Source: a virus. Taken from it: a stretch of DNA of 64,000 nucleotides. Positions 4,953 through 63,081 of the stretch are shown here, in pieces. Every line of letters starts with the position of its first letter. Position 1 is the first letter of the stretch. The stretch covers positions 114,430 through 178,429 of the IMG/VR virus record IMGVR_UViG_3300012953_000001; one strand, 5' to 3'. The position numbers and the translations under genes were made by a program. The notes beneath the pieces are model-generated. The model did not search any database, had not been told where the DNA came from, and saw nothing but the letters and a program-made list of their open reading frames with translations.

Positions 4953-4955
4953 TAT

Positions 4956-5168: not shown

Positions 5169-5281
5169 ATCAGTTTCCGACTGTTACAAGCACAAGCATG
5201 ATTGCGGCGTGTACTGAATAAGACATAAAAAGGAACTTATAGAACAGCACATCGTCTGAGCGTCTTCGGTTCATAATAAAG

Positions 5282-6703: not shown

Positions 6704-6724
6704 CTCTTTGTCCTCCGATAGTTA

Positions 6725-6907
6725 CTAAGCGTTACGCTCTTCCTGAACCTGCTTACGCAACTCTTTGCACTTAGTCGCAACCGTTTGTAGGACTTTTCGC
6801 ACTCTTCCGCCAGCAGCATTGTTACCGTCTCCATGCTTGTTGGCATCAACAAGGGATTCGGCTAATACATGAATCATGTCTTCCATCTGTTTTTCTACGC
6901 TCTTCAT
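6725..6907 (-). CDS. histone H1-like Hc1-family protein
   Basis: 60 aa with D..KHGDGNNAAGGRVRKVL..LRK, the signature of the Hc1 N-terminal domain. Confidence 0.7.
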   Translation of the reverse strand: MKSVEKQMEDMIHVLAESLVDANKHGDGNNAAGGRVRKVLQTVATKCKELRKQVQEERNA

Positions 6908-6908
6908 A

Positions 6909-7577: not shown

Positions 7578-7586
7578 ACGTATCCT

Positions 7587-8381
7587 TTAAAAATTCATCC
7601 TGAATAAGTTGCCCTGCCCAGTGGGGCTAAATGGCAATACGCCTGTATTCTTTTGTCCAAAAGGGTTGAACTTTTGTCCAGCCCTAGGGGCTCTTGGAGT
7701 AGCCGGTGGCTTAGCCGGTCTTGTGATGCCTGAATTTGGGTACATGGGCGTTCTCGCCCTCATCAAACTGTTTGGCCCTGCGGCACTAGTCGCATTGGGT
7801 GACGGGGGCGTAGGCATCTTGGGGATCTTCAGCTTTAGCTTCGAGACAAGCGAAAGATTTTTACTCCAAGGGTGGGGTCCAGCCCTTACCGGAGTATGCG
7901 TTGGTCCCGTTGGTCTATTGAGTACGTTTGGTGCTGACTTACCTACCACTCTAGTTGGTTGACTGTATCCCCCAGGGGTAGTCTTGGTCCCAGATAAGGG
8001 TGGGGAAAGCATGGAGCCCTGTAGCAACTCCCCAGGACCACGCATACCAACTGGTTTAGATGAGTCCATGTACCTACTCTGCCTATTAGTAGCTACTGCT
8101 TTTGCTTTTTGGTGCTTAGCTTGGATCTTATTCTGGATCCCTGTCCCTAATGCACCACCCTTACTACCGTAATTGCCTGGAGCTTTAGGCATGTCAAATG
8201 CTTTGCCTCCGGGATGCGGCTTAGGGTTCTTAGTGCCATCCTTTACCACAGGTCTTGGGCGAGCTTTTCTTGGGGAATACGCGACCTTCTCCAACAGACC
8301 GAGGACATAATTGTCCGCAATCTTGGCTACAGCTATTTTTTCAAGCTCATCCCGCATTGACCTAAGAATAGACACGTTCAT
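7587..8381 (-). CDS. basic Pro/Gly/Lys-rich protein with ELEKIA/LEKVA leader
   Basis: 264 aa, low complexity, leader motif present twice. Confidence 0.6.
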   Translation of the reverse strand: MNVSILRSMRDELEKIAVAKIADNYVLGLLEKVAYSPRKARPRPVVKDGTKNPKPHPGGKAFDMPKAPGNYGSKGGALGTGIQNKIQAKHQKAKAVATNRQSRYMDSSKPVGMRGPGELLQGSMLSPPLSGTKTTPGGYSQPTRVVGKSAPNVLNRPTGPTHTPVRAGPHPWSKNLSLVSKLKLKIPKMPTPPSPNATSAAGPNSLMRARTPMYPNSGITRPAKPPATPRAPRAGQKFNPFGQKNTGVLPFSPTGQGNLFRMNF

Positions 8382-8386
8382 TGCAA

Positions 8387-9304
8387 TTAACCCTTTTGCA
8401 TTTTTCGGGCTAATTCAAGCAGTTTATCCTGAACACCCTTCTTACCGCCCAACTCACCACGAGTGCTTAGTGGAACCGAGATAGACCCGTCTCGCTTCAT
8501 ACGGTCAATCGCTTTATCTCCAAAGCGCTTTCTCCAAGCCTTCTCCATTGCGGGAGACAGCTTCGAAGCCGATGTGTCTGGCATAAAGAACGCGCCCATT
8601 GGGTTTCTTTTGCCTCGCTTCGGTTGCATATTAATAATGTCTTTCGCCCCCATCATCTTATGCAGTCTTCGTCTACCAAAGAAGCCAAGGGTTGGAGTAT
8701 CTTTAATGCCCTTCTTCAAGGCTGATACGGCTAACATCTGTGGCCCCATCCCCACTAATTTTGCCTTGAGCATCGGGCTCAACGTGGACTCGCCCTTTCT
8801 AGCAGCCTTAGCCCCCAACGCAGCGGCAGCAACATTACCAGAAGCCCCAGAGAGATAAGTCGTGTAAGCCCACAACAGATCCCTTCGCGCCTTCTTGTAT
8901 GTTTTTGGTGCAATACCTTTGAGCTTCTTTAGAGCCTTAAGTCCATGGTACGTGGCCAAGAATTCTTCTGCCAGTCTGGGTGCTTCCCCTGCGGCTTGAA
9001 CTGCGCCATCTTGAACCATGTGTTTTCGTAGTTCTTTCTTACTTGGGGCCTTTCCAACGCCACGAGAATACCGACGATACTTGTTAATTAGTTGAGAGAC
9101 CCCTGGGCCTGCTCCATAACCAAGCATCCGAAGCTTTCGAACAGTTTTGCTTGAGCCTCTTAACGTCTTTGCATGCCCAAGCTCATGTGCAAGGATAGAT
9201 GCAGGCGCTCTATGAGGAGTGCCTTTTCGTACAAGAGTCTCTAGCCCTCTACCCATCATCTGTTTTAGTGCGCTCTTCGCAGCATACTTCTCTAATGCGT
9301 TCAT
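8387..9304 (-). CDS. basic HExxH zinc-metallopeptidase-like protein with LEKYA leader
   Basis: LAHELGHA plus distal EEFLA and AYTTY, the layout of YugP-like neutral Zn peptidases. Confidence 0.6.
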   Translation of the reverse strand: MNALEKYAAKSALKQMMGRGLETLVRKGTPHRAPASILAHELGHAKTLRGSSKTVRKLRMLGYGAGPGVSQLINKYRRYSRGVGKAPSKKELRKHMVQDGAVQAAGEAPRLAEEFLATYHGLKALKKLKGIAPKTYKKARRDLLWAYTTYLSGASGNVAAAALGAKAARKGESTLSPMLKAKLVGMGPQMLAVSALKKGIKDTPTLGFFGRRRLHKMMGAKDIINMQPKRGKRNPMGAFFMPDTSASKLSPAMEKAWRKRFGDKAIDRMKRDGSISVPLSTRGELGGKKGVQDKLLELARKMQKG

Positions 9305-9852
9305 TAAAATGTCCCCTGTATATTACCGGTAAAGTAGGGTTTTCGTTGGTTCCGACCTGCTCCTACTGGCAACCGCGCCCCAATATTACCACGAATATTC
9401 TTTGATAATCTTCCGCCCCAACCCATGTTTAAGGTGCTTGGTCGTCCACCCGACAAGGTGGTCCCAACGCTAAGTGGACCGGCTTTCACGCCTAAGTTAG
9501 TCATAGACTTCTTCGGCATTACATCTCGCCAAGTCATTCCGACCGGCGCTCCGCTTCTGGCTAAACTTCGATTGATAGAGAGACGCTGCAAGTTATCAGT
9601 TGCGCCCTGACCCCTAGCCATAATGCCTTGTAATCCCTTAGTAGGTCTTTCCATTTTGCTAAGAGAGGTCATCGGGTTGCTTGAATGAGAAGCTGTCACC
9701 TTAACGGGTGACTTAGAGTACGCCTTGCCAATCCCAGAAAGGGTGGCCCCAACAGACGAACTAACTGTTGGCTTAGCCAAAATCTTCTTAGCTATCTCGG
9801 CTAACTTGGTAGTTAGCTTTCGCTTGGACGCGTATTTCTCTAAGGCGTTCAC
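9304..9852 (-). CDS. basic protein with LEKYA leader
   Basis: Probable GTG start at 9852, just after the upstream stop, giving MNALEKYASKRKL. Confidence 0.6.
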   Translation of the reverse strand: MNALEKYASKRKLTTKLAEIAKKILAKPTVSSSVGATLSGIGKAYSKSPVKVTASHSSNPMTSLSKMERPTKGLQGIMARGQGATDNLQRLSINRSLARSGAPVGMTWRDVMPKKSMTNLGVKAGPLSVGTTLSGGRPSTLNMGWGGRLSKNIRGNIGARLPVGAGRNQRKPYFTGNIQGTF

Positions 9853-9854
9853 GG

Positions 9855-10487
9855 TTATGACCCCTTTACCCATTTCTGGTTGTCTTTGTCTTTCGTCTTG
9901 CTTGGGCTCCACTTGACCTTATCCGCCCAATAAGCCGCACTCAAACGACCCTTGGAAATGTTCTTGCCGTGGCGGGACTTAAACGCCTTGCGTTGACCAG
10001 CGGTCTGGTTGGTCTTCACGCCCTGCTGCCCAAAGCGGATAGTCTTTACTTGGTCACCCTCTTTAGCAACAACGATGTGAGACTTAGTAGGGTGATTAGG
10101 TGTGCGCTTAGGCTTGTTGTAGCCAGAAACACCAGCACGTTCTAGCCGTGGGTCTCTCGAAGCGGCAATCTTAGCCCAAGCCTTCTTGGTCTTCTCGTCT
10201 TTAGGGACCACTCTCTCACCCTTATGCACACGAGCGTATGGCTTGCCCTTCTTGTCGGTCAAATAGCCATCCTTCTTCACGGGTCCGCCCTTGGAATAAC
10301 CAGCTAGTCCGCTACCCTTCATCATCCGTTGGGTGAAATTGGAGTTCCCCATCATGGCGATTTTCAGCTTGTCACTGACAGCCTGAAGACGTTCGGCTTG
10401 ACTTTTATGCATCTTGGAAGCCCCGTGAAGTTCCTTAACAATCTTCTTGAGCTTCTTCTTAGCGGCATATTTCTCTAGCGATCTCAT
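9855..10487 (-). CDS. basic protein with LEKYA leader and conserved phage C-terminal domain
   Basis: ATG at 10487 in an ATGA overlap; the IRFGQQG..RKAFKSRH..SAAYWA domain is widespread in phages, function unknown. Confidence 0.65.
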   Translation of the reverse strand: MRSLEKYAAKKKLKKIVKELHGASKMHKSQAERLQAVSDKLKIAMMGNSNFTQRMMKGSGLAGYSKGGPVKKDGYLTDKKGKPYARVHKGERVVPKDEKTKKAWAKIAASRDPRLERAGVSGYNKPKRTPNHPTKSHIVVAKEGDQVKTIRFGQQGVKTNQTAGQRKAFKSRHGKNISKGRLSAAYWADKVKWSPSKTKDKDNQKWVKGS

Positions 10488-11635
10488 ATAGACCACCGGT
10501 CATTCTTTAGGCCTTCCTTCGTTCTCGGCGTAAGGTTTTGCCTATTGATCTGGGGTGTTGGGTAATACTCTCGGTATGGCATGGTTCCTCCGGAAGGAGT
10601 AGTCTTGCCAGTCTTACCGCCTAATCCGCCTTTGGCTTTAGGAGATTTGAGGAAAGCGCCCTTTGCTGCCTTAAGCCTATCGGTGAGACGGTTCTTGTCC
10701 CATGCTTTTTTGGCTTCCCAGCCCAGTACCCCTCCAGCAGCAGCGATTGCTGGTTTAGAGTTAACAAGCCTTGCAGCCATGCCACCCATTCTTCCGTAGT
10801 TTCTTCCAGCACGAGCAGCGAAAGTAGCCCCTCTGTTACCCCAAGTGGTAACAGGTGCTTTGATCCCAGTGCGTCCTCGCTTGAATCCCTCTTGCAAGCC
10901 TTTGCCAGCAGCCTGGGGGATTTGGCGGAGTCCAGTGGCCCCTGAGCGAACAGCAGCCTTTAGTCCTCTCCCTAATAAAGCCAAGTTTGCTGTCTTCACA
11001 GCGTCAACGCTCCCAGCCTTGCTCAACATAGTTAAGTAGGATCCTCCACGGACTTGCGAAGGGGGCGTAGGCGGCTTTATTGTTTTCGCCGCCGCGCTCA
11101 ATGCCCCAGATTGCGCCTTATGTATCCAGCTACTCTTAACCTTTATTGGTTTGCCTGTGGTGTCAGGTTGTCCATTGCTTCCTTTAGGTAATTTGTATGC
11201 ACCATAAGAGGACGCTTGCAGCGTGAGCGGGTGACCGCCCTGGGCGATTTTGCGTAATGCTGAATTTAGTTTCACTTTAGCTCCTGGAAAGACTGCGTCT
11301 TTGACCGGGTTTGGGTGCTCCCAGACCCTCTTCAGGGTTTTCTGGTAGCGCCCTTCTGGTTTTCTTGGTGTAGAGGATATTCCGCCACCACCTTTCATAA
11401 TATCCAGGTAACTTCCCCCACGCGCCTGCCCACGTTGCGCACCACCGCTGCTCCCTTTGGAAGCTGAGGCTACCGCCCTACTTAAGATCTTTGACGTGTC
11501 TTTTGTCTCTGGGTACTTCATTGGAGCGCCAGAGTACGGGTCTAACCCTGACTGCCTAAAAATTTCGAAGTCAGACTTGGCTAGCTTCTCAAAAGCATCG
11601 TTAATATATGCTAAGTAATACTGCTTAGTACTCAT
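10484..11635 (-). CDS. basic Gly/Lys-rich protein with AFEKLA leader
   Basis: 383 aa, strong AGGAGG SD, internal RGGSYL repeat (x2). Confidence 0.65.
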   Translation of the reverse strand: MSTKQYYLAYINDAFEKLAKSDFEIFRQSGLDPYSGAPMKYPETKDTSKILSRAVASASKGSSGGAQRGQARGGSYLDIMKGGGGISSTPRKPEGRYQKTLKRVWEHPNPVKDAVFPGAKVKLNSALRKIAQGGHPLTLQASSYGAYKLPKGSNGQPDTTGKPIKVKSSWIHKAQSGALSAAAKTIKPPTPPSQVRGGSYLTMLSKAGSVDAVKTANLALLGRGLKAAVRSGATGLRQIPQAAGKGLQEGFKRGRTGIKAPVTTWGNRGATFAARAGRNYGRMGGMAARLVNSKPAIAAAGGVLGWEAKKAWDKNRLTDRLKAAKGAFLKSPKAKGGLGGKTGKTTPSGGTMPYREYYPTPQINRQNLTPRTKEGLKNDRWSI

Positions 11636-11644
11636 TATTACCTC

Positions 11645-12061
11645 CTAATATCCAGAAGAAGCTGAAGCTACAGCAGCTTGTGCTTTTCCGCTAGTCCCAG
11701 TGCTCATTCGATCACCAGTTTTAATACGCATGTTAGAATCCTTCAATAGCTGATCTTTAACCAACCGGCTAAACGGTTCGAGAACTTTATTAGATGACAG
11801 CACTCGGTAAAAGCCAGCCATCTTAGACTGGTGTACCAGCAGAATATCAGGAGATACATACGCGAGGAAGCGTATATGGTGGGTTGCGGTGTCATAAGAG
11901 TAGGTCGTAAAGACCTCGTTCCTGTTCGGACCAATAGTTGTGTACTGTGCTGGTTCGCCCGAAAAAGGAGTCTGCTGAAACTGCCCCGTGCTGTTGTAGG
12001 TTTGTCGATTAACTCCATAGAAGTTAGTTACGACATCGAACTTGTTTGCGAGTGAAAACAT
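11645..12061 (-). CDS. tail-associated hypothetical protein
   Basis: 138 aa directly downstream of the tape-measure-like gene. Confidence 0.55.
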   Translation of the reverse strand: MFSLANKFDVVTNFYGVNRQTYNSTGQFQQTPFSGEPAQYTTIGPNRNEVFTTYSYDTATHHIRFLAYVSPDILLVHQSKMAGFYRVLSSNKVLEPFSRLVKDQLLKDSNMRIKTGDRMSTGTSGKAQAAVASASSGY

Positions 12062-12073
12062 TTATTACTCTCC

Positions 12074-15000
12074 TTAATTCTGTCCGGGCGGCTTCCAAGC
12101 CTTCAATTTGTCTGCCAATCCACTGAGTGCTGTTAAGACGCCCTGCACTGCTTCTTGGGCTCCTGCGCCTCCACCACCTCGGCCAGAAGTAGGATTAAGC
12201 GGAGCGAGGTTCGTTGATAGTCTTGTAATAAGCTGTTCACGCTTGGCCTTATCTCCGGCAGAGCCCGAGACAAGATCTTTACTCAGCCCTTCGACCTCCT
12301 CCTCTGTAGCAGTCTTGCCAGACTTGCGGAAGATATCCCTCGCGGTCTCATTTAGCATACTCTCCAGTCTAGTGGTTAGTTCGCCTTTACCAGAAGAGGG
12401 ATCTTTTAAGTACGCTTGTTCTTGCTTAGTCAGCTTATTGAATTTGGGGTTGTGCGAGATTGAGGACAAGAACTTCATGGGAGAGTCTTTCGCCTCTTCC
12501 CACTGTTTCGTGTAATAACGAACGTTTGCGCCAACAACTGCCGCTCTACCTGTAAAGGCTGTACCACCCTTAGCCAACGAAGTAATTGCCCGATCTTTAC
12601 CCTCATCGGTCATGTCATCGCCTAGGAACATCCCGGCGACTTTTTTCATTGCCTCGTTTTCATGGTCTTTAATCTTGAAGCCTGACGATGGATCGTAGCT
12701 TCCCTGACCTTTATTAAACTCCTCAAGGTGCTTAGAAAAAGCATTCTTGCTGGCGTACCCACCAGCCATCGCTGCCATTCTAGAGCCTGAGGTGGCTTGG
12801 ATTGACTCATCACCAAGAGCTTTTGTACGACCACCCAAGTAGCCGATGAGCTTTTTGCCCTCTTCACTGTCCTTGACCAGGGTGTCAAAGTTGGTTCCTT
12901 GGCCCCACCCGGCCTGCGCCAAAGACTTATTGGCACCCGTGTGAAGCATCAGTTTGTCATTGAGCGCACCGGGCTCTTTCATTTTATCAATAAAGTCGCC
13001 TGCGGTCATCTGGTCACCGGACCCAAATGCGCCACCAGTCTTAGCTAACGCTGCACTAAACCCTGGGACAGAACGAAACTCATCTATGTAGGAAGACCTC
13101 TGCGAAGTAGTAAGTTGGCCTCTAGCTCTATCCGCTTTTAACCTAGAAAGAATGCCCTGATACGGAGAACCCTCCGCGCCAGATAGTGTTCTATGAATTT
13201 CTGATAATACCGCGTTGTCTGTTTCTTGAGTGCCGGTGCCCCCGTAAGGGCTTTGCAAGCCTGAGCTGTTCATGCTCAACGCTTTAGCTGTGGGTGTGCT
13301 TGAGGCCCTGACTAGTTTTGTTATCTCTTCATGCGGGGCCAACCCATCCCCCTGCTTAAAGTCAGGATTCTTCATGTTTGTGAGATGCTTTGAGAGCGTC
13401 CCCTCATCTACCCCAAGTGTCGTAGACAGTCTTGATAAGGAATCACCAGACTGGTGCCCCAAAAGTTGCTCAGCAATTCGTTTTCCTTGATCGCCACCCT
13501 TACCCAAAAGAGCTGTGATGTGAGCACCTGTTCTGTGTCCAAGCATTGTTGTTGTTCTGTCCCGAGCAGACTCAGGGTCCATTCGATATTGAGCAGATGC
13601 CTGGAATCGTTTCTTGAGGCTTCCTTGGAACATCCCTTTTCCGGACATGTATTGGTAAGCCTGGGAACTGTTCGCACCGGTCTTCTCCATGAAGACCTTC
13701 ATTCTTCTCTCATCAGATACATTGCCCAGGGCAGCGATATCACCTGCCACGCTCGTGAGCCGTTGCTCTCCCCCTAAGGCATCTATCATAGCTGAGTGGT
13801 CTCCACCCATACCCGCTATGAGTTCATGGATTTTTTTCTGTCCTCCAGAGGTCAGGAATCCCTGCGTTCCACCATAGCCTTTGCCCCCATCTTCAAAGGT
13901 TCCGCCCAGTGGGGTAAGTCCTAATGCTTGAGCGGCCTCTGCATCAAGACCACCAACTGCTCCACCAACCTTGTGCCTCTCAGTGATGCTATCACCCAAA
14001 ACACCTACACCTTGAAGTGATTCAATTAGTCTTGCGTTATTACCAGTAATGGCTCCTGCGGAAATTCCCGACATCCCATACTGACGCATAGCTTCAGGAG
14101 CTTGGTTGGTTATCGCATCGTAAGCCATGAGTGGTACACCTACTGCCCCCAATGCACCGCCACCCATTCGTCCTAAGAATCCACCAACTCGTAAAGCACC
14201 ACCACCAAGTCTAGCTGTGCCACCAACTAGTCCGTGGCCACCCATGCCCATAAAACCAGAACCGCTACCACCAAAGAGACCAGTGTAACCAGAAGGGCCA
14301 CCGCCAGTTATGCGTTGACCAATGTTACTCATCACCGCACCGGTAGCGCCAAAGATATTTCGGCCACCGCCAAAACCTCTAAACGCTGACGCAAATGCGA
14401 GCCCTGTTTGTCCAGGCTGATATTGTTCCAACCCTAGACCGCCCATGGGGAGTTCACTAAATTGGGTGCCCCCTCCTAATCCAGGAAGTTGGAATCCCAT
14501 TGGTGTGAAGTCTCTTGCGAACTGCCCAGCCCAGGTAGTTGGGTTGGGGCGTCCACCAAGTTGCATGCCTGCTTGACCGCCAATTGCTTGGGTTAGTCTG
14601 TTGCTCCATTGATTAAGAGCACTAGTATTACCTGTCCAAGATAAGTTCTGAATCTGGCTAGACCATCCTCGACCTTCTGTTCTAGAGAATGCTCCCGAGC
14701 CACCTTGCCCGGTCAATTGCGTGTTAACATCCTGCACGGCATCTTGGTAATATTGAGTCATGCTTGCGCCGAGTTTTTGGAACTGCTGGCGCACCGGCTT
14801 GGTCAATTCACTAACAGCCTTGCTCATGATATCGGTGATGCCCATCATCCCACCGCTACCTTCTTTGAACCCGGCTCTCGCTTCTTCAAGCATCTTCTGT
14901 CGGAGTGGTCCGGTACTACTAGACAACATCTCCATTGCTCGATGGTCGTTTCGGGTCAGCCCGGTCATCTGTCTAATCATTGACTCGGGCGAACTGCTCC

Positions 15001-16234
15001 GGTTGGCCAAGCTTCGGAGAGGAGAGGCGATGGCTTGGGGTCCGAACTCAGAAATAAACTGCCCAGCTAACTCACCCCCTCGTGCGTTAAGCATGTCACG
15101 GGCCCCGGCCCCTTGAATGTTCTGGTTGTACAGTCCCTGAATTTGTTTCCAGGAGTACCCACCACCAGCAATTCGACCAGCAATGTCAGAGTCGAACTCT
15201 CCTGTGGGGGTCATCATCGCCCCTAAAACTGTTCTACCGTTCCTAGACCCTAGGAATCTCGTAGCTGCTCCTGTATATCTACCCTGCGCTGCACCAGTGA
15301 TACCTTTAATGAGGTTATTACGTTCCGTATACCCATAGACACCTGCACTAACCATAGCCCCGGTAGCTGCTTGTCCCATATCAATGCCAGCGGCTTGTCC
15401 GAAGTTAGCTCCTGCTTGTGCTACTCCCATCATGCCAGCAGGAGAGATATTTGATGCTTGTCCAATTCCCTTCATGGTTCCTAAGAACCCAGCAGCCTGA
15501 TCTCCTGTTATCCCCATACCACTAACAGACTGCATTGCCTGTTGTGCTTGTTGTAATGAGGTATTCATCACAGTGGCTACTTGACGAACGTTGCTCATTA
15601 ATTTGTTAAAGGACTGGGAAAATTGTGTGAGTGTACTTGTGTCAATCGCTCCGCTATGAACACCTTGTTGCATTACAGAGGTAATCTCGCGAAGATTCCC
15701 CATACCCATACGAGCTTGCGACTCTACTTGAGCAGACATCATGCCTAGCCCTTGAGAGTTCATGCCCGGGAACATCTGTCCCATTTGGGAATTAAGCATC
15801 CCGCGATTTTGTGCACCCGCAACCATGTGGTTGGTAGCCCAACTACCCATGGCACCCATACCCATGTATGCGCCCATTGCTGCGCCACCCATTCCGATGG
15901 CACCTGCTAATCCTTGTCGGGCGAATCCTTGACCACCCATATGCATGGACATGGTAAACGGGTCGAGTTGTCGTGGACCGAAACCGAACATGGACATCAT
16001 GCCCAGTCCGCCCATAGCCATACCCGGCATACGAGCCATCCCACCGCCTACACTACCGGCATGAAGACCCATCTGTGCTTGGTGGGTAGACTGTCTTGGG
16101 TCATTTACACCCATTCCACCATGACTCTGGTAACCGTACTGCGCGGAAACCGCATGAGCATACGCGGCTGAGGCACTAAACATCCCTACCTGGGACTGAA
16201 TAATGCCGCTGATCTCGGTACTACTAATTGGCAT
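12074..16234 (-). CDS. tail tape measure-like protein
   Basis: 1386 aa, Gly/Ala/Met/Gln-rich and helical, upstream of tail/baseplate genes. Confidence 0.65.
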   Translation of the reverse strand: MPISSTEISGIIQSQVGMFSASAAYAHAVSAQYGYQSHGGMGVNDPRQSTHQAQMGLHAGSVGGGMARMPGMAMGGLGMMSMFGFGPRQLDPFTMSMHMGGQGFARQGLAGAIGMGGAAMGAYMGMGAMGSWATNHMVAGAQNRGMLNSQMGQMFPGMNSQGLGMMSAQVESQARMGMGNLREITSVMQQGVHSGAIDTSTLTQFSQSFNKLMSNVRQVATVMNTSLQQAQQAMQSVSGMGITGDQAAGFLGTMKGIGQASNISPAGMMGVAQAGANFGQAAGIDMGQAATGAMVSAGVYGYTERNNLIKGITGAAQGRYTGAATRFLGSRNGRTVLGAMMTPTGEFDSDIAGRIAGGGYSWKQIQGLYNQNIQGAGARDMLNARGGELAGQFISEFGPQAIASPLRSLANRSSSPESMIRQMTGLTRNDHRAMEMLSSSTGPLRQKMLEEARAGFKEGSGGMMGITDIMSKAVSELTKPVRQQFQKLGASMTQYYQDAVQDVNTQLTGQGGSGAFSRTEGRGWSSQIQNLSWTGNTSALNQWSNRLTQAIGGQAGMQLGGRPNPTTWAGQFARDFTPMGFQLPGLGGGTQFSELPMGGLGLEQYQPGQTGLAFASAFRGFGGGRNIFGATGAVMSNIGQRITGGGPSGYTGLFGGSGSGFMGMGGHGLVGGTARLGGGALRVGGFLGRMGGGALGAVGVPLMAYDAITNQAPEAMRQYGMSGISAGAITGNNARLIESLQGVGVLGDSITERHKVGGAVGGLDAEAAQALGLTPLGGTFEDGGKGYGGTQGFLTSGGQKKIHELIAGMGGDHSAMIDALGGEQRLTSVAGDIAALGNVSDERRMKVFMEKTGANSSQAYQYMSGKGMFQGSLKKRFQASAQYRMDPESARDRTTTMLGHRTGAHITALLGKGGDQGKRIAEQLLGHQSGDSLSRLSTTLGVDEGTLSKHLTNMKNPDFKQGDGLAPHEEITKLVRASSTPTAKALSMNSSGLQSPYGGTGTQETDNAVLSEIHRTLSGAEGSPYQGILSRLKADRARGQLTTSQRSSYIDEFRSVPGFSAALAKTGGAFGSGDQMTAGDFIDKMKEPGALNDKLMLHTGANKSLAQAGWGQGTNFDTLVKDSEEGKKLIGYLGGRTKALGDESIQATSGSRMAAMAGGYASKNAFSKHLEEFNKGQGSYDPSSGFKIKDHENEAMKKVAGMFLGDDMTDEGKDRAITSLAKGGTAFTGRAAVVGANVRYYTKQWEEAKDSPMKFLSSISHNPKFNKLTKQEQAYLKDPSSGKGELTTRLESMLNETARDIFRKSGKTATEEEVEGLSKDLVSGSAGDKAKREQLITRLSTNLAPLNPTSGRGGGGAGAQEAVQGVLTALSGLADKLKAWKPPGQN

Positions 16235-20685: not shown

Positions 20686-20756
20686 ATCGCTGCTGAATGC
20701 CGTACTGGATTACATAAGCAAAAAACGAATCTAGTACACCCCCTTGTCAGCAGCAT
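20686..20756 (+). ncRNA. Y RNA-like structured RNA 2 (~70 nt)
   Basis: GCUGCUGA/UCAGCAGC lower stem, GUACUGGAUU/AAUCUAGUAC upper stem, and CCUUGUC shared with RNA1. Confidence 0.6.
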
Positions 20757-20797
20757 CCTTAGAGCCTGAACTATTGTCACAATCAAAGGAGTTTCTC

Positions 20798-22390
20798 ATG
20801 AACCCAGCAATCTTCAACACTCACACCGTCGTCAACCGCAGCGCAGAAGCCCCGGCAACTAACACTACCAATGAGGCTGGTGGTGCTGCGTACGAGCTTG
20901 AGCCCAAGGCTCAGCTTGCACAGTACGTTTGTACTGGAACCCTCAACCAAACTTTCTACGCCCATGCTGGAACACAGCTGGAGAAAGTCATCGAGCTTTG
21001 CGAGAAGGTCGAGCCTGAGTTCATTGCTCAGTGCGCGGTCTACGCTCGCACCAAGGGCCACATGAAGGACATGCCTGCTTTGCTGCTAGGTATCTTGTCC
21101 ATCAGGGATACGGCTCTGTTCGCACAGATCTTTCCTCGTATCATTACGAATGGAAAGATGCTGCGGAACTTTGCTCAGGTGATCCGCTCCGGTTCTGTTG
21201 GTCGTAAGAGCTTCGGCTCTCGCGCCAAGAAGTGCATCCAGGAATGGCTTCGGTCAAGAACCCCAGAGCAGCTTCTTGTAGCTACTATTGGGAACAACCC
21301 GACGCTTGGTGACATCATCAAGATGGTCCACCCTAAGCCGGTGGACGAAGTGCAAAAGGCGATGTTCGCTTGGATCATTGGTAGGGACTTCAACATCGAA
21401 GTTCTCCCCCAAGGAATCCAAGAGTACATCTCCGGTACTCGGGTGACCGAACAGATGCTTCAGAACCTTCCTCACAGACTGCTTACAAAGTACGATCTGA
21501 CGACGGAAGACTGGCGCGTCATTGCACTAAATAGTGGGTGGACTGCTAAGCGAATGAATCTCAACTCGTTCGCGAAGCACGGCGTATTCTCCTCAGAGAT
21601 TGGAGACTGGACTGCTAAGGAATTGGCTTCCAGTATCCGAGATCCGAACGAGATTCGTCGGTCCAGATGCTTCCCCTACCAGTTGCTGACTACCTTTCAG
21701 AACGTGAACGATGATGTACCCACTGTCATCCGAAGCGCTCTTCAGGACGCCATGGAGGTGGCTATCGAGAATGTGCCAACCATTACTGGTAATATGGCGG
21801 TTCTCGTAGACACCTCTGGTTCTATGGGTAGTCCCGTAACTGGGTACCGAGCAGGGTCAACTACTTCGACGAGTTGCGTCGATGTGGCGGCACTGATTGC
21901 TTCGGCGTTCCTTCGTAAGAATGAAGACGGCTGCACAGTCGTCCCATTCGATACTAGGGTCCACCAAGCACGCCTCAATCCTCGCGATTCTGTGATGTCA
22001 AATGCACAGACTCTCGCGAACTTTGGTGGCGGCGGTACTGATGTATCTTGCGCCCTTCGGCACCTCAACCATGAGGGACATGAAGGTAAGTTGGTAGTCA
22101 TCATTTCGGACAACGAGAGTTGGATGAATGATGATCAGTACCGCTACTACAATAGCAGTACTTCTACAGCGCAGGAGTGGGAGCATTACAAAGAGCGCAA
22201 CCCTGGGGCTCGCCTCGTTTGTGTTGACATCGCACCGTACGGAAGCACTCAAGTGCCCACGGATAAGGATGTCCTCAACGTTGGTGGCTTCTCGGACTCT
22301 GTGTTTGACGTGATTGCGTCATTCGCAGGGGAGCGACCTCAATCAGATCATTGGGTATCAATGATTGAGGCTCAAGCTCAAGCCAATTAG
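20798..22390 (+). CDS. rsr: Ro60/TROVE-domain RNA-binding protein with vWA domain
   Basis: NEAGGAAY, YAR..GHMKDMP, MLRNF.Q.IRSG..GRKS.GS, MVHPKP and the VDTSGSM MIDAS motif; AAAGGAG SD before ATG 20798. Confidence 0.95.
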   Translation: MNPAIFNTHTVVNRSAEAPATNTTNEAGGAAYELEPKAQLAQYVCTGTLNQTFYAHAGTQLEKVIELCEKVEPEFIAQCAVYARTKGHMKDMPALLLGILSIRDTALFAQIFPRIITNGKMLRNFAQVIRSGSVGRKSFGSRAKKCIQEWLRSRTPEQLLVATIGNNPTLGDIIKMVHPKPVDEVQKAMFAWIIGRDFNIEVLPQGIQEYISGTRVTEQMLQNLPHRLLTKYDLTTEDWRVIALNSGWTAKRMNLNSFAKHGVFSSEIGDWTAKELASSIRDPNEIRRSRCFPYQLLTTFQNVNDDVPTVIRSALQDAMEVAIENVPTITGNMAVLVDTSGSMGSPVTGYRAGSTTSTSCVDVAALIASAFLRKNEDGCTVVPFDTRVHQARLNPRDSVMSNAQTLANFGGGGTDVSCALRHLNHEGHEGKLVVIISDNESWMNDDQYRYYNSSTSTAQEWEHYKERNPGARLVCVDIAPYGSTQVPTDKDVLNVGGFSDSVFDVIASFAGERPQSDHWVSMIEAQAQAN

Positions 22391-25815: not shown

Positions 25816-27483
25816 CTATCCAACAATGACCCAGCCTCTACCGGCACCAACGTAAACAAGCATCACAGAAGCCATTTTGAAATCGAGGGTAAGGTGTGGC
25901 TTACCTTCAACATGGAATCCCTGTGGATCTACGATTCGAACCTTGGCGTTCTCGGCAAGCCCGGTAGCCTTAACAGTGATTGCCATACCAATCAGGTCAT
26001 GACACCCGTTAGGATCCCCAAACATTCCACCTTCTTCGGCCTCACCGATAGTGGGCGTTGGGGGTGGTGTAACACTTTCGCCGCCACCCTCAGACAAGTG
26101 GCCTTCATACTCCGCCATCGCTGCTTTGTACTTATCCATTTCCGAATTGCTGAAGCTGAAACGTCCGAACTCATACATTGGGTGCCCCTCTGCGGGCAGA
26201 GTCAACGTAAAGGTTTCATCCTTACCAAGCTCATTAATGAGGAAGTTAGTACAAAAGCAGTCAGGACCCTCAAAGCTAATGTAGTGCCCACTCTCTTCAC
26301 CTGTGGTTTCTAAGATCTTCCAAGCATACAGCTGCTTACGCAGATGCTCATGGAGAAGACCTAACTCCATCCTCGCTGAAGAAACTTCCGACGAAGCGTA
26401 CTGTCGAAGATTCGAACTCATCTGTGGAAGAACTGAGTCGTAAAGATTGTCCCCAAACTCATTCTGCGCTTCGACGATCCCATCAATAGAGGCGGTGAAG
26501 GAGTCCTCCATTAGCTGATCAGCATTCTTATACCCCGCTTCGATATCAGCAACCGCACTATCGTTTTGGTTCTTGTAGCTGTTGAAATCAGACAGGTGCT
26601 GCTGAGCATCTTTACGATGCGAGTCTACCGTATCCCCAAGCGCACGAATCGCGCCCTCGTTGGCAACGATAGCCTCGCTCAGATCTTTATTGAAGTTCTC
26701 AATAATCGCCTGAAGACGACTCTCAGTGCTAGATAGCTCATCGGTAATCCTCTTACCAAGTAGCTCGTCCGCCGCAAGGCGAGCGTTTCTTTCACCAGCA
26801 ACAGCAGCTACACGAAGATTCCTCTCAGCGACAACAGCCTCTGAAGCTTCTGCTCGATCCGCTGCTCTCTCAGCGTCATAAGTCTCTTTCTGGACAACTG
26901 CGGCCCCAAGAAACTTAGCGACAGGAACAAACACACCTTGATCGTTTTTGATCTCGATCTGGTCTAGCTCGTCATTGTAGACACAAGTGCCCTCGCCACC
27001 ATCTTCGAACTCCCAAGAAGGAGTGCCCATCTCGTCAAGTCCAGTGATCCAGGCAATCTGGCCTTCTCTATTGTAAAGAGGGTCGCCCTCTTCGACAGCA
27101 GGGTCTGTCTTGACGATGAAGCGAGCACCTTCTTGAAGATCCTCTGGTGCAAGGTCAGCAGACTTACCTACCTGCCTTTTAACAGCATCTCGCCAAGTAA
27201 CCTGTAGGCTGGCAAGCTGTGCTCTAAGGCCAGCAGCCTCCTTCTCCAAGTTCTCAGCGAGAGTCTCGAATGCAGCTTCTGCGGCCTCTCTGACAGCGTC
27301 GTCGCCTGACTCAATAGCGGCCTGAAGCTCAGCTTTCTGATTCTCAAGATCAGATAGGATGCTCGCAACTGAGTTAGCATACTTACTATCTATTGCACCA
27401 AGCTCTGTCTGGTTGACCAACTGACCAACCTGACGTGCTGCGTGTTCAATAAGCTCCCACGCGGGTCTAATATTATGTGACAT
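25816..27483 (-). CDS. acidic coiled-coil protein with phage structural-type C-terminal domain
   Basis: 555 aa, long heptad regions; C-terminal LTLD..ASVMLVYV..GW motif seen in phage fibre/structural proteins. Confidence 0.55.
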   Translation of the reverse strand: MSHNIRPAWELIEHAARQVGQLVNQTELGAIDSKYANSVASILSDLENQKAELQAAIESGDDAVREAAEAAFETLAENLEKEAAGLRAQLASLQVTWRDAVKRQVGKSADLAPEDLQEGARFIVKTDPAVEEGDPLYNREGQIAWITGLDEMGTPSWEFEDGGEGTCVYNDELDQIEIKNDQGVFVPVAKFLGAAVVQKETYDAERAADRAEASEAVVAERNLRVAAVAGERNARLAADELLGKRITDELSSTESRLQAIIENFNKDLSEAIVANEGAIRALGDTVDSHRKDAQQHLSDFNSYKNQNDSAVADIEAGYKNADQLMEDSFTASIDGIVEAQNEFGDNLYDSVLPQMSSNLRQYASSEVSSARMELGLLHEHLRKQLYAWKILETTGEESGHYISFEGPDCFCTNFLINELGKDETFTLTLPAEGHPMYEFGRFSFSNSEMDKYKAAMAEYEGHLSEGGGESVTPPPTPTIGEAEEGGMFGDPNGCHDLIGMAITVKATGLAENAKVRIVDPQGFHVEGKPHLTLDFKMASVMLVYVGAGRGWVIVG

Positions 27484-38187: not shown

Positions 38188-38496
38188 ATGGAAGCTATAG
38201 AAGAGGAGGTAGTTCTCCCCAAATTTGATCTGGGCATGCTTGTAGCTACCCCAAATTTTGTAAGTAACGCTGAACGGCTTGGGCTTAACTATAATGAGGT
38301 AGTTGCTCGGGCGCTGAGGCGTCATACGATAGGTGACTGGGGCGATTGTTGTGAGGAAGACTCTCAGACAAACGATCAGGCACTGAAAGAAGGTTCCCGC
38401 CTACTTTCCGTTTATATGATGGAGGATACAAAGTTCTGGGTAATCACTGAGTGGGATCGCTCAGTAACAACAGTTCTTATGCCTGAGGATTACTAA
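38188..38496 (+). CDS. conserved plasmid/phage protein (GDWG..N..AL..G.RL.S.Y family)
   Basis: RHTIGDWGD..TNDQAL..RLLSVY..WVITEWDRSVTTVLMPEDY. Confidence 0.7.
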   Translation: MEAIEEEVVLPKFDLGMLVATPNFVSNAERLGLNYNEVVARALRRHTIGDWGDCCEEDSQTNDQALKEGSRLLSVYMMEDTKFWVITEWDRSVTTVLMPEDY

Positions 38497-39806
38497 TGGG
38501 AAACAAAAGCAGCACCTATAAAGGTGACAGCCCTGGGAAGAAGGTAGCTCGCGCCCGCCTTTGGATTAATGCAGGGATGGTAATGACCGCCTTAGACGCC
38601 AAGTACAGGGGTGCTTACGTACTTGCTGGCGAAGGTGGAGACGTGTCTACACTTAAAGCACTGTCATTCCCCCCTAATACAATCACCGCAGTCGATACAG
38701 ATAAGGACTACGCGGGCTTTGTAGGGGAGCTATATCCTGGAATACAAACACTTGCTGGTGAGGCTGGTAACTGGTCTGAGGTAGCTGACTACAACGCTGC
38801 TAACTTAGACTTCTGTAATGGCATCACTTTAGAAAACATTGAGACGGCTTACAAGGTTGCGAAAAATGCATCCTCGTATCCAATGTGCTTAGGGGTAACC
38901 CTTATGAAGGGTCGAGAGGCTCTTTCCAAACCAAACTATGGTGTGAACCCAGATCTTCCGAGAGCCATGCGAAAAGAGCTTCGAAGAAGGTCACTGAAGT
39001 TTGGTGAGCAGAGTGGTGACCAACTGCTTATGCGCGGAAAGAGATTTGATCCTGCTCTATGTATTGAGCGTTCTACTAAGAGGCTTATGAATACCTGGGC
39101 TGTTACCGGATTTGCTGAGGCTATCGGTGCCGCTCGGAATGGTAAGTTGACGCCTCTGGGCCACGGAATGGTTCGTATGGATGCTTTCAGAGGGTGTTTG
39201 GATCTAATGCTCTATGAGCATGGTCTCCAAAGTCAGATCGTAAGTTGTTTGAGCTACCACTCAAAGTCTAAGCACAGCGGTGGTACCGGATTTGTATGCG
39301 GAAATTATGTAATAGTTCCCATGCAGGAAAGGGAAATGCTTCAGGCATATCTGACAATACATGCGCCAAGTCTTATGATGTTTGACAATATCCCTGGTGG
39401 CGAAAGTCGAGACGCACTTCGTAAGTTTGCACTCAGTGGGTGCAAAGGTCTTCCTTCAAAGGTGGTCGCGGAGCTTTTCGATATTCCACCGGGAACGGTT
39501 GCGGCATGGCGAGCAAACAACACTCGTGGTAGGTACGTCAACGACGAACCAAACACTGTGGGAAGCTTGGCACTTAGGCGTGGTGGTCTTCTGGTAGATG
39601 GTCATTCAAATATTCCCGGCCTAGGCAGGGTGAATATCGGTGAGGAAGGTGCTCCGATCTCACCCATGTATTCCGGTTGGGGTAACATAGTATACACTCC
39701 CGAATGGGAGCTTCGTATGGTTCGTCCTGAAGAGGGCGCAAACGATGTTGAAAACAAGGAGGTAGGTAATGCCTGCAATAACGAAGTTACTAGAAAAACG
39801 GGCTAG
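38496..39806 (+). CDS. SAM-methyltransferase-like domain plus HTH
   Basis: LAGEGGD, ITAVD and NLDFC Rossmann-like motifs; VAELFDIPPGTVAAW HTH. Confidence 0.5.
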   Translation: MGNKSSTYKGDSPGKKVARARLWINAGMVMTALDAKYRGAYVLAGEGGDVSTLKALSFPPNTITAVDTDKDYAGFVGELYPGIQTLAGEAGNWSEVADYNAANLDFCNGITLENIETAYKVAKNASSYPMCLGVTLMKGREALSKPNYGVNPDLPRAMRKELRRRSLKFGEQSGDQLLMRGKRFDPALCIERSTKRLMNTWAVTGFAEAIGAARNGKLTPLGHGMVRMDAFRGCLDLMLYEHGLQSQIVSCLSYHSKSKHSGGTGFVCGNYVIVPMQEREMLQAYLTIHAPSLMMFDNIPGGESRDALRKFALSGCKGLPSKVVAELFDIPPGTVAAWRANNTRGRYVNDEPNTVGSLALRRGGLLVDGHSNIPGLGRVNIGEEGAPISPMYSGWGNIVYTPEWELRMVRPEEGANDVENKEVGNACNNEVTRKTG

Positions 39807-51945: not shown

Positions 51946-52041
51946 GGGCCCGTAGCTCAGTGGTTAGAGCAGCAAGCTTATACCTTGTATTAGCGCCTGA
52001 TAAGCGCGAGGTCGTGGGTTCAAATCCCACCGGGCCTACCA
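51946..52041 (+). tRNA. trnI: atypical 96-nt tRNA-Ile with two tandem anticodon arms (UAU and GAU)
   Basis: Acceptor GGGCCCG/CGGGCCT, A73, encoded CCA; D arm GCTC/GAGC; arm1 GCAAG-CTTATAC-CTTGT; arm2 GCGC-CTGATAA-GCGC; AGGTC; T arm GTGGG-TTCAAAT-CCCAC. Confidence 0.85.
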
Positions 52042-52058: not shown

Positions 52059-52382
52059 ATGTCCGAAAAAGAAACTATGAAGAAAGAAGCTCTAGAAGCC
52101 CTAGAGTCAATACTCCCAGGCATAAGTCAGTTCTTGGAAAGTGAAGAGTACGAGCAGGACCATGGGGAAGATATCCCCGGTCTGGATGTCGTCGTCGCTC
52201 TGTTCCAAGAAACAAAGAAGATACAGAAGGAATATCCTATTCTGTTCTCTCTTGCGATGGATGCACTAAACGCAATCAAGGACCACGAAGTCAAACTTGA
52301 GATACTCAAGAATATGATTCTGTCACTTGATGGTATGATCAGTGGGCCAATGACTCCACCAGACGATGGGTACCTGAACTAG
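52059..52382 (+). CDS. acidic hypothetical protein between tRNAs
   Basis: GGAGG SD, ATG 52059. Confidence 0.65.
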   Translation: MSEKETMKKEALEALESILPGISQFLESEEYEQDHGEDIPGLDVVVALFQETKKIQKEYPILFSLAMDALNAIKDHEVKLEILKNMILSLDGMISGPMTPPDDGYLN

Positions 52383-52390
52383 GTACTCAA

Positions 52391-52476
52391 GGGGCTGTGG
52401 CGGAATTGGTATACGCATCAGACTTAAAATCTGACGCCCTATGGGATTGAGGGTTCGAGTCCCTCCAGCCCCACCA
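52391..52476 (+). tRNA. trnL: tRNA-Leu(UAA)
   Basis: GGGGCTG/CAGCCCC acceptor, TCAGA-CTTAAAA-TCTGA, long variable arm, TTCGAGT loop, CCA. Confidence 0.95.
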
Positions 52477-52868: not shown

Positions 52869-52944
52869 GGGCCGCTAGCTCAACCGGTAGAGCACCGGAC
52901 TTTTAATCCGTAGGTTCCGAGTTCGAGTCTCGGGCGGCTCACCA
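52869..52944 (+). tRNA. trnK: tRNA-Lys(UUU)
   Basis: GGGCCGC/GCGGCTC acceptor, CGGA-CTTTTAA-TCCG, TTCGAGT loop, CCA; 76 nt. Confidence 0.95.
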
Positions 52945-52962: not shown

Positions 52963-53364
52963 ATGAAAGAAACAGACAAGAGGTACTTGTTCCTTGTGCG
53001 TGGTCTGCCCGGAAGCGGGAAATCCACGGTCGCGGCTGAATTGATCGGACACGAAGGTGTCATGGTAGCCGCCGATGACTACTTTGAAAAAAGTGGGGAA
53101 TATATATTTGATCCGTCAAAGCTACCAGACGCCCACGAAGAGTGTCGAAACAACGTAGAAAAGGCAATGCTCGCAGATTGCCCAAAGATCGCTGTGCACA
53201 ATACCTTCTCTCAGAGATGGGAAGCAGAGCCGTATTTCGCACTAGCAACAAAACACAAATACTCTATATCAGTGGTTGAGTGTCAGAGTAACTTTGGTAA
53301 TATCCATGGCGTGCCCGACAGTACCATATTAAAGATGATTGAACGTTGGGAGCCGTTGGTATAA
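52963..53364 (+). CDS. AAA_33/N4BP2-like P-loop (polynucleotide) kinase
   Basis: VRGLPGSGKST, ADDYF, AH..C, NTF..WE..PY. Confidence 0.85.
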   Translation: MKETDKRYLFLVRGLPGSGKSTVAAELIGHEGVMVAADDYFEKSGEYIFDPSKLPDAHEECRNNVEKAMLADCPKIAVHNTFSQRWEAEPYFALATKHKYSISVVECQSNFGNIHGVPDSTILKMIERWEPLV

Positions 53365-54449: not shown

Positions 54450-54950
<501 letters not shown>

Positions 54951-61956: not shown

Positions 61957-61968
61957 GTGGAGCTTCCA

Positions 61969-63081
61969 ATGGCAACTGCAACAGCAAAGAATTACGTATT
62001 TGACCTCACTAATGACGACGAACTAATAGCCTCACAACTACAGAAGATCGTCACCGACACTAACCGGTTTGAGGCTAAAGAGCTTATCCGACTATCAACC
62101 CAGCTGAACCGCGAAAACGCTTCAGAGCGTATGCACAACGGTAAGCTATCTAAGCGTGCTGAAATATATGAGCGGGCCAAGACAAGGTTGACAGCAAAAG
62201 AGAAAGAGTACGAGAAGGCACGCTACCGTGCTCGTCAGGCACGCGGCAAGATGATGGATCGAACTTCCAAGTCTGCTGCTGCAAGAGAGCGGGCCTCACA
62301 TTGTGAGCGAAGAATCTCTGAGATCAAAGCTCGCATGATGAGAAGTGAGGAACTCTATCAGGAAGACGCGTTTGAAAGACGTGCTCTGATGATCCGATTT
62401 GTTGAAAGTCTAATCAACACCGAACAGCCTATTAAGCTTGAGAGCTACGGTGAGAGACTAACCCTAAGTTGGGAGACTAACGACGTATATATTAAAGATG
62501 GATTTGGCGGTTTTCTGGACCACTGTTTTGGCAGATTCCACGTATCAGTAGTATTCACGCAACGCCCTACAGGAAACTCTATTGATGTGTACTGTCGGAC
62601 AAGATCTACTACAGAAGAAAACTTTCGTAGAGGGTACCCACACCCCCACCTAAACTATAGCTCAGGTCATGCTTGTCTAGGGAATTTGGCCCCAAGGCTT
62701 ATTCACGGCATGGGTGATAAAGATGTCGCTTCAGTTATTCAGGATGTCTCAGAATTTCTGATGCACTACAACAAAGAGAACCCCTACGTTCGCTTAGAAG
62801 AATGGATTCCTAATAGATGGGATAACCCTATTTGTGAATCTAACGAACACCTTCTAGCTGATTGTACCTGCCCTCGGTGTAGCACCTGTGGGTCTATCTT
62901 TGAAGAGTCTGACCTAAGCGACTGCGGAAGCTGCCACAGTTGCTGCATGGTCAACCATATACATAGTCCAGACACAGAAGGTATCAACGGATCAAGTTGT
63001 ATTGAGCGAAGCGAGTATAACGCTCGTGTTCGGGAAAACAGCGTTTCTGAGGGTACAGAGAATCAGACAGGAGTAGTGTAA
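61969..63081 (+). CDS. coiled-coil + prokaryotic E2-like (UBC) domain + Cys/His cluster
   Basis: YPHPHL..SGHACLG active-site pattern; C-terminal 10 Cys/4 His. Confidence 0.7.
   Translation: MATATAKNYVFDLTNDDELIASQLQKIVTDTNRFEAKELIRLSTQLNRENASERMHNGKLSKRAEIYERAKTRLTAKEKEYEKARYRARQARGKMMDRTSKSAAARERASHCERRISEIKARMMRSEELYQEDAFERRALMIRFVESLINTEQPIKLESYGERLTLSWETNDVYIKDGFGGFLDHCFGRFHVSVVFTQRPTGNSIDVYCRTRSTTEENFRRGYPHPHLNYSSGHACLGNLAPRLIHGMGDKDVASVIQDVSEFLMHYNKENPYVRLEEWIPNRWDNPICESNEHLLADCTCPRCSTCGSIFEESDLSDCGSCHSCCMVNHIHSPDTEGINGSSCIERSEYNARVRENSVSEGTENQTGVV

Follow-up and report, generated by a model that had tools for sequence, protein, structure and literature searches.

The window analysed here is a 64,000-nt stretch of phage DNA at the end of a complete virus record, which is 178,429 bp long and has terminal repeats. 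At positions 51946-52041 of its plus strand lies a tRNA-Ile(UAU) gene of 96 nt with five helices, A73, and an encoded CCA. Two hairpins, arm1 and arm2, stand between its D arm and its T arm. The features of the gene and of the tRNA cluster around it are as follows.

51946-52041, plus strand: tRNA-Ile(UAU), whole gene (ARAGORN; Rfam tRNA, 65.7 bits; family covariation)
51946-51952 paired with 52031-52037, plus strand: acceptor stem, 7 bp, with G1·U72
51955-51970, plus strand: D arm, 4-bp stem
51971, plus strand: A26
51972-51988, plus strand: arm1, the decoding anticodon arm, 5-bp stem, loop CUUAUAC, anticodon UAU at 51979-51981 (Infernal alignment; covariation)
51989-51992, plus strand: linker AUUA between arm1 and arm2, in the family 1-4 nt long and variable in sequence (family alignment)
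51993-52007, plus strand: arm2, the GAU-displaying hairpin, 4-bp stem, loop CUGAUAA, GAU at 51999-52001 (covariation; GAU invariance)
52008-52013, plus strand: spacer of 6 nt between arm2 and the T stem, G at 52008 plus AGGUC at 52009-52013, the canonical variable loop of positions 44-48 (family alignment)
52014-52030, plus strand: T arm
52038, plus strand: A73
52039-52041, plus strand: encoded CCA
52059-52382, plus strand: 107-aa open reading frame between tRNA-Ile and tRNA-Leu (tblastn, 33% identity to L002, L005, and L008)
52391-52476, plus strand: tRNA-Leu(UAA), the next tRNA gene of the cluster (ARAGORN)
52869-52944, plus strand: tRNA-Lys(UUU) (ARAGORN)
54874-54950, plus strand: tRNA-Arg(UCU) (ARAGORN)

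Re-reading of the sequence, with ARAGORN and Rfam in agreement, gives the 96-nt tRNA exactly the coordinates and anatomy of the original prediction. ARAGORN calls the gene tRNA-Ile(tat), 96 nt, and the Rfam tRNA model (RF00005) matches over its full length (1-71) with a score well above the 29-bit threshold. In the Infernal alignment, arm1 occupies the anticodon arm of the model, and arm2 falls in the variable region as an insertion. The minimum free energy structure from RNAfold contains both hairpins; its z-score is only -2.15, and folding energy alone is weak evidence for this tRNA. Arm1 has the 7-nt loop and the 5-bp stem directly after position 26 that are expected of a UAU-type arm, and the Levitt pair is an ordinary G15 and C48. 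Arm2 does not show the combination of a 5-bp stem, U33, and purine 37 that marks a second anticodon arm. The window gene is very likely a functional AUA-reading tRNA-Ile.

The whole virus record encodes four tRNAs only, Ile(UAU), Leu(UAA), Lys(UUU), and Arg(UCU). The last three serve the codons UUA, AAA, and AGA, and all four decode A-ending codons. The phage genome has a G+C content of 48.7% and uses AUA for 17% of its isoleucine codons (448 codons), AGA for 25% of its arginine codons, and UUA for 15% of its leucine codons. Neither TilS nor IleRS was found in a search of the phage genome. For most of the large phage proteins, PHROG and Pfam give no family match. The 107-aa open reading frame downstream of the tRNA-Ile gene likewise has no match in PHROG or Pfam, and is kept in L002, L005, and L008, three relatives syntenic with the window. 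A polynucleotide-kinase-type P-loop kinase sits within the tRNA cluster. A scan of the cluster for promoters and terminators gave nothing usable.

The first pattern run against viral contigs specified both loops and returned 8 homologues. Later scans left arm2 wholly free, avoiding circularity; the viral scan is complete, and the metagenome figures are among the matches listed. With the second loop unspecified, about 30 distinct relatives are found in viral, metagenome, and bacterial DNA, which answers the call of the original prediction for a search of phage and metagenome contigs for double-armed tRNAs. A literature search for the five-helix layout found no description of it. Wherever a closed arm1 is combined with a long extra region, that region holds a hairpin with the loop C-N-G-A-U-N-N, always in the viral scan and with one exception in 23 in the metagenome scan, where 22 of the 23 long UAU tRNAs with closed arm1 among the matches listed have C.GAU in the extra region.

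The 26 other long UAU tRNA genes among the listed metagenome matches are of the eukaryotic/archaeal intron type, and C.GAU is present in none of them (0/26). These tRNA-Ile(UAU) genes with a 37/38 intron are likewise about 20 nt over normal length, but their insert lies inside the anticodon loop, positions 27-31 pair with the 5 nt before AGGUC, and C.GAU is missing, whereas in the window family arm1 is closed on itself and the hairpin lies outside it. The intron genes form a separate class in the metagenome scan. The extra 20 nt of the window gene are not an intron, as had been proposed from the sequence: arm1 is closed on itself, and a bulge-helix-bulge motif is absent.

The family alignment holds 28 distinct sequences from the complete viral scan and the listed metagenome matches, with at least 17 different acceptor stems. 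In this alignment 98.7% of the cells are paired, and compensatory changes occur at 19 of 25 pairs, a value reached by none of 500 shuffles; slid controls also fall far below the observed pairing values. The arm2 helix is 99.1% paired with covariation at all four of its pairs, and four of the five pairs of the arm1 helix covary. Some invariants are fixed by the search pattern and hence uninformative, namely GCA at 24-26, the first six bases of loop1 (CUUAUA), AGGUC, and part of the T arm. In 28/28 members exactly 6 nt separate arm2 from the T stem, and the linker between the arms is 1-4 nt. On the 5' side, the canonical connection with the D stem, via A26, belongs to arm1; on the 3' side, the canonical connection with the variable loop and T stem belongs to arm2. 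Of the pairs in the arm2 stem, 3-4 are Watson-Crick and one never is (A.G, A.A, or C.A); some members have a bulge. The earlier argument that two isoleucine anticodons in one tRNA are no random insertion holds.

The IleRS determinants listed in that prediction fare unevenly. C4-G69, U12-A23, and A73 are indeed all present in the window tRNA, but across the family only A73 is constant (28/28); C4-G69 occurs in 18/28 and U12-A23 in 22/28 members, and C29-G41 is not conserved.

A complete relative of 181 kb, G156, has 144 orthologous proteins in common with the window phage at a mean identity of 68%. Both arm stems of its tRNA differ from those of the window gene yet compensate, and both loops are identical, ruling out an assembly error and recent decay. 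Two other ideas about the paired arms were discarded. Loop-loop kissing between UUAU of loop1 and AUAA of loop2 does not fit, as A37 of loop2 is U in several members while loop1 is fixed, and there is no covariation. A recent duplication of one arm does not fit either, as no member has related stems in its two arms.

Among the matches listed, the commonest metagenome variant resides in Actinomyces chromosomes, directly upstream of tRNA-Leu(UAA). The gene order, Ile(UAU) then Leu(UAA), is common to the window and Actinomyces. TilS was not found in 7/7 Actinomyces carrier genomes; the search that covered five of them was positive in 14/14 control genomes. We also searched an order-wide sample of 151 genomes with the family covariance model. 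Full-length matches occur in three genomes only (G001, G031, and G072), all of them without TilS. TilS is present in 144 of the 151 genomes, and the five-helix tRNA in none of these 144. A Fisher test of 3/7 against 0/144 gives ~6e-5 by our own arithmetic, with the carriers being close kin. The four further genomes without a TilS match have an Ile2-like CAU tRNA and fragmented assemblies; TilS is probably missing there through assembly gaps and not through true loss. A pattern search of these four genomes for a class I tRNA-Ile(UAU) found nothing.

The CAU tRNAs of G001, a finished chromosome, and of G072 are two in each genome, an initiator and an elongator tRNA-Met, with no third; each genome also has one ordinary tRNA-Ile(GAU). 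The five-helix tRNA is the sole AUA reader found in these two genomes, the two that were checked, and must therefore work in translation. The Actinomyces IleRS is eukaryote-like, with scores of 600-716 bits to the structures of yeast-type, Thermus, and IleRS2 enzymes versus 283 bits to the S. aureus type 1 enzyme.

The decoding arm is constant even when left open in the search. In scans with arm2 fixed and arm1 free, all true members have UAU in arm1 (10 viral and at least 12 bacterial, from Actinomyces), one of them with C33. The other listed bacterial matches of the first pattern of this kind are mostly ordinary tRNA-Ile(GAU) with an acceptor stem starting GGGCA. The last base of loop1 is C in the window gene; across 51 distinct class I tRNA-Ile(UAU) genes without arm2 in viral contigs it is A in 26, C in 17, and U in 8. 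C38 was considered as a hallmark of the family and rejected, with C or U standing there also in 25 of these 51 genes.

The meaning of AUA can be read from codon evolution. Across the 144 ortholog pairs with G156, 377 AUA codons of the window phage correspond to isoleucine in 59%, valine in 19%, leucine in 11%, and methionine in 3% of cases. In the same pairs, ATT and ATC correspond to isoleucine in 65%, valine in 15%, and leucine in 9%, and TTA corresponds to leucine in 73%. Judged by these substitutions, AUA clearly stands for isoleucine in the window phage. The Actinomyces loci offer 20 alignable AUA sites only, which have no excess of leucine, serine, or tyrosine. The proposal of a TilS-independent AUA decoder is borne out by the codons of the other three phage tRNAs (UUA, AAA, and AGA), by the share of AUA among phage isoleucine codons, by the evolution of AUA as an isoleucine codon, by the negative TilS searches in the Actinomyces carriers, and by the finding of no other AUA reader in the two Actinomyces genomes checked. 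As judged from genome content and codon evolution, the five-helix tRNA is shown to be a working decoder of this kind.

Loop2 was free in the scan patterns, and G34, A35, and U36 are each present in 28/28 members, as is C32. Next to the triplet, U33 is found in 27/28, position 37 is A in 23 and U in 5, and position 38 is A in 27 of the 28. GAU is constant although the arm2 stem turns over completely and acceptor stems differ at all seven pairs. A route that uses no pattern, BLAST of the 96-nt gene against cultured phage genomes, finds three carriers. In Synechococcus phages SynMITS9220M01 and DSL-LC02, loop2 is CAGAUUA; in Acinetobacter phage vB_AbaS_qsb1, arm2 has 3 bp and the loop CAGAUAA. 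The variable loops of these members differ from AGGUC, and both GAU and the 6-nt spacer are kept. Pipeline annotation of these genes is inconsistent, with tRNA-Ile given in one Synechococcus phage record and in the Acinetobacter phage record, and a blank at that place in the other Synechococcus record.

From this pattern of constancy, GAU in loop2 is very likely under selection. In decoding loops, U33 and a purine at position 37 are universal. A33 occurs in loop2 of the cultured phage members and of one further member, L187. An arm2 loop with A33 and U37 lacks both universal features, indicating a triplet that is selected but would not belong to a working anticodon loop. The variation around GAU (U33 to A, A37 to U) thus argues against decoding by loop2; GAU is maintained for some partner other than the ribosome.

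Which partner reads the second triplet? The explanation that we place first was not among the options of the original prediction: IleRS may read GAU of arm2 as an identity handle, a proposal that we hold tentatively, as plausible but short of probable. The tRNA would let the phage decode AUA without the lysidine (TilS) pathway of the host. Arm1 would supply the decoding anticodon UAU, joined to the D stem like a normal anticodon arm. Arm2, inserted between position 43 and AGGUC, would be non-decoding and would present G-A-U, the anticodon of the major tRNA-Ile. IleRS would be the likeliest reader of GAU, and the element read by the ribosome and the element read by the synthetase would thereby be separate.

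Bacterial IleRS recognises its tRNAs largely by the anticodon, and UAU is poorly accepted. With the E. coli enzyme, charging of tRNA-Ile2(UAU) is 1.1% of that of the LAU form, and a Trp-to-Arg change in the wobble pocket largely repairs UAU charging (PMC3575796). Yeast IleRS is 40-fold less active with an unmodified UAU transcript (PMC11685878). A phage would be unable to alter the IleRS of its host, but able to alter its own tRNA.

The geometry sets a demand. When a tRNA is bound to a class I synthetase, including IleRS, its variable region faces solvent. The ordinary L-shape puts loop2 far from the anticodon-binding domain, and the handle idea therefore needs a second conformation. Arm2 may swing into the position of the anticodon arm on IleRS binding, because its canonical 3' link to the variable loop and the T stem is kept. 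In the full form of the proposal, the UAU arm1 would be used by the ribosome only and the GAU arm2 by IleRS only, probably after the two arms swap on the D stem, giving phages and Actinomyces a portable, host-independent tag for AUA reading without lysidine; we regard this division of labour as possible, with some doubt.

Several points stand against recognition of arm2 by IleRS. It would need arm2 in the anticodon-arm position on the D stem, a placement that the junction pattern would permit. The 51 class I tRNA-Ile(UAU) genes of viral contigs manage without arm2. The E. coli IleRS determinants A37, C29-G41, and C4-G69 are not conserved in the family. Finally, the IleRS of Actinomyces is of the type found in Bifidobacterium, which has this eukaryote-like enzyme, no TilS, and a tRNA-Ile(UAU) gene (PMC3575796).

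The closest known systems are the TilS-independent tRNA-Ile(UAU) of Mycoplasma mobile (tRNA-Ile2; PMC3575796), the Bacillus subtilis G34U suppressor (PMC3919564), Bifidobacterium, and Neorickettsia. These have in common with the window family a UAU anticodon of the unmodified type, AUA read as isoleucine, and no lysidine. The setting is alike, with TilS missing or the tRNA supplied by a phage, and so are the twin problems, acceptance of U34 by IleRS and misreading of AUG. Genes for tRNA-Ile(TAT) are also present in Cyanothece PCC 7424 and Ferrimonas balearica (PMC3575796). The M. mobile tRNA-Ile2 and the B. subtilis suppressor derive from tRNA-Ile of ordinary length, whereas the window family adds a 4-bp hairpin with an invariant GAU. 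M. mobile solves the charging problem on the enzyme side, by Arg865 in IleRS (PMC3575796); the solution here, if it is one, would lie on the side of the tRNA.

The rival that survives best has another partner read arm2. Arm2 could be an antideterminant or shield for U34, acting on enzymes of the MnmEG or CmoAB type and against misreading of AUG; it could make a contact for ribosomal accuracy; or it could recruit a factor such as the t6A synthase. We consider this unlikely, though the least so of the alternatives. GAU is under selection in this case too. We know of no modification enzyme that reads G-A-U specifically, however, and IleRS does so. On the ribosome of E. coli, AUG is misread by UAU tRNAs, and U34 of the M. 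mobile tRNA stays unmodified (PMC3575796). The t6A determinant is 36-UAA-38 (PMC13276492); it is missing in loop1 of the window gene, which has U36-A37-C38, and present in its loop2. Against recruitment of t6A, C38 or U38 occurs in 25 of the 51 class I phage tRNA-Ile(UAU) genes and is hence not tied to arm2, and U37 excludes t6A in loop2 of 5/28 members and of the cyanophages.

In the original prediction, one gene was thought to fold or to be processed into either isoacceptor. Of two alternative folds, one would expose UAU and the other GAU at the end of the L-shape used for decoding, and a single tRNA would serve all three isoleucine codons. Each arm has one canonical junction (arm1 with the D stem via A26, arm2 with AGGUC and the T stem), and both loops are 7 nt long and carry isoleucine anticodons, as such a switch would require. 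The details of arm2 nevertheless make it improbable. Its stem has only 3-4 Watson-Crick pairs beside the pair that is never Watson-Crick, with the bulges of some members, and its loop has U37 in 5/28 members; L187 and the cultured phage members have A33 there, combined with U37 in the cyanophages. Actinomyces keeps a separate ordinary tRNA-Ile(GAU), and the phage tRNA set is aimed at A-ending codons only. For the processed version, bacteria have, to our knowledge, no splicing route.

A decoy against anticodon nucleases, also suggested from the sequence, gains no support, and we rate its chances as poor. Arm2 would divert a host defence nuclease that cuts tRNA-Ile(GAU), or would protect the molecule. 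Phage tRNA clusters are a known counter to anticodon nucleases, and the P-loop kinase within the cluster would suit such a role. We know of no anticodon nuclease specific for tRNA-Ile, however. Fusion of a decoy to a UAU tRNA would be needless, yet UAU is present in every member, and the fit is poor with a gene that in Actinomyces is chromosomal, stands beside tRNA-Leu(UAA), and is the sole AUA reader found.

It is hardly more promising to take arm2 for a relic. An ancestral tRNA-Ile(GAU) would have gained a new arm by insertion, and its original anticodon arm would now serve as a structural prop only. The body does resemble tRNA-Ile(GAU), and the canonical AGGUC loop follows arm2. A prop needs a stem and not a sequence, though, and here the stems turn over while GAU is invariant, retained even where the flanking bases of loop2 have changed.

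It is very improbable that arm2 makes the molecule a class II style tRNA, charged through its long arm by LeuRS, SerRS, or TyrRS with AUA recoded. Nematode nev-tRNA, a class II tRNA with a UAU or CCC anticodon, offers a precedent (PMC3333845): it is likewise long-armed with UAU, and its UAU form accepts leucine (PMC3333845). Nev-tRNA has the body of a tRNA-Leu with a swapped anticodon and is leucine-charged, whereas the window tRNA has an isoleucine-like body and a GAU arm, and its AUA codons evolve as isoleucine. Across the 144 ortholog pairs, AUA behaves like ATT and ATC and unlike leucine codons; the 20 Actinomyces sites, a weak sample, have no leucine, serine, or tyrosine excess, with the five-helix tRNA the sole AUA reader found there. 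The window tRNA resembles the class II tRNAs (Leu, Ser, and bacterial Tyr) in having a fifth helix, placed after the anticodon arm and ahead of the T arm, and it has A73; the long arm of tRNA-Ser is an identity element for its synthetase, and both ARAGORN and Infernal assign arm2 to the variable region. The mode of attachment differs. In class II tRNAs, 1-2 nt separate the long arm from the T stem and the sequence of its loop is not conserved, whereas arm2 is always followed by 6 nt including AGGUC, complete in the window gene and separating the insert from a standard class II arm in all members, as was first noted for this gene. Unlike class II arms, arm2 also has a 7-nt loop that looks like an anticodon loop with a fixed triplet, in a tRNA of isotype Ile with a class I type D arm (4-bp stem) and the ordinary G15 and C48.

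An artefact or a dead gene can be dismissed. Whether as a misassembly that joined two tRNA-Ile variants, as a pseudogene, or as a spliced insert, it has nothing but the odd look of the gene in its favour. Against it stand the recurrence of the design in many independent assemblies, among them finished Actinomyces chromosomes and three cultured phage genomes, and the compensatory changes in both arms of a syntenic relative at ~68% protein identity. The gene has no bulge-helix-bulge motif, and bacteria, as far as we know, have no tRNA-splicing endonuclease and no splicing route for such an insert.

The reading of AUA as isoleucine and not as methionine is a long-standing puzzle of the genetic code, and the solutions known for it are lysidine, agmatidine, pseudouridine, and a changed IleRS. 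If IleRS does read arm2, a non-decoding loop that bears GAU would be a further solution, residing in the tRNA itself. We know of no earlier natural tRNA that assigns decoding and synthetase identity to physically separate parts of the molecule. Cultured systems are at hand in Actinomyces species, Synechococcus phage SynMITS9220M01, and Acinetobacter phage vB_AbaS_qsb1. The design would also be an idea for engineered tRNAs, in which the anticodon may be exchanged and charging retained.

At least 26 distinct tRNA-Ile(UAU) genes among the metagenome matches listed (L164, L183, L247, L210, and 22 further metagenome loci) carry a 15–25 nt insert inside the anticodon loop. In these genes, positions 27–31 are paired with the 5 nt preceding AGGUC. 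They resemble intron-bearing tRNA genes of eukaryotes or archaea and are not related to the five-helix family, in which tRNA-Ile(UAU) has an extra hairpin with GAU.

The five-helix family includes the following viral tRNA:

L401:3427-3531, five-helix tRNA, UAU loop CCUAUAA, second loop CUGAUAU

In its UAU loop the universal U33 is replaced by C. Two further members, on the IMG/VR contigs L129 and L151, have an Actinomyces-like acceptor stem, a UAU arm closed by a C·A mismatch, and the second loop CUGAUAU. Both contigs are listed as viral and are very long (201 and 420 kb, respectively); they may be bacterial DNA carrying prophage.

Two protein-coding genes lie among the tRNA genes of the window:

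52059-52382, + strand, acidic 107-aa ORF between tRNA-Ile and tRNA-Leu, ribosome-binding site GGAGGG
52963-53364, + strand, 133-aa P-loop kinase (Pfam AAA_33; PHROG 2071; weakly PHROG 505, polynucleotide kinase)

The acidic ORF has no family match in PHROG or Pfam, and is kept at the same position in the syntenic relatives L002, L005, and L008 with 33% identity. The kinase gene is flanked by tRNA-Lys(UUU) and tRNA-Arg(UCU), inside the tRNA cluster, and is conserved in L005. Its product may contribute to tRNA repair.

Elsewhere in the window is a larger ORF:

20744-22390, + strand, 548-aa ORF with Pfam Ro60 vWA and TROVE domains (PHROG 850, RNA-binding protein)

By these domain and family matches, the phage encodes a Ro60-like protein. 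The partners of Ro60 are the tRNA-like Y RNAs; an Rfam search across the whole window found no member of the Y RNA family.

Neither PHROG nor Pfam has a family that matches seven of the window's largest ORFs, among them one 1386 aa long. They lie at 3090-16234, 25816-27483, 38496-39806 and 61957-63081.

The 178-kb phage is distant from described groups.
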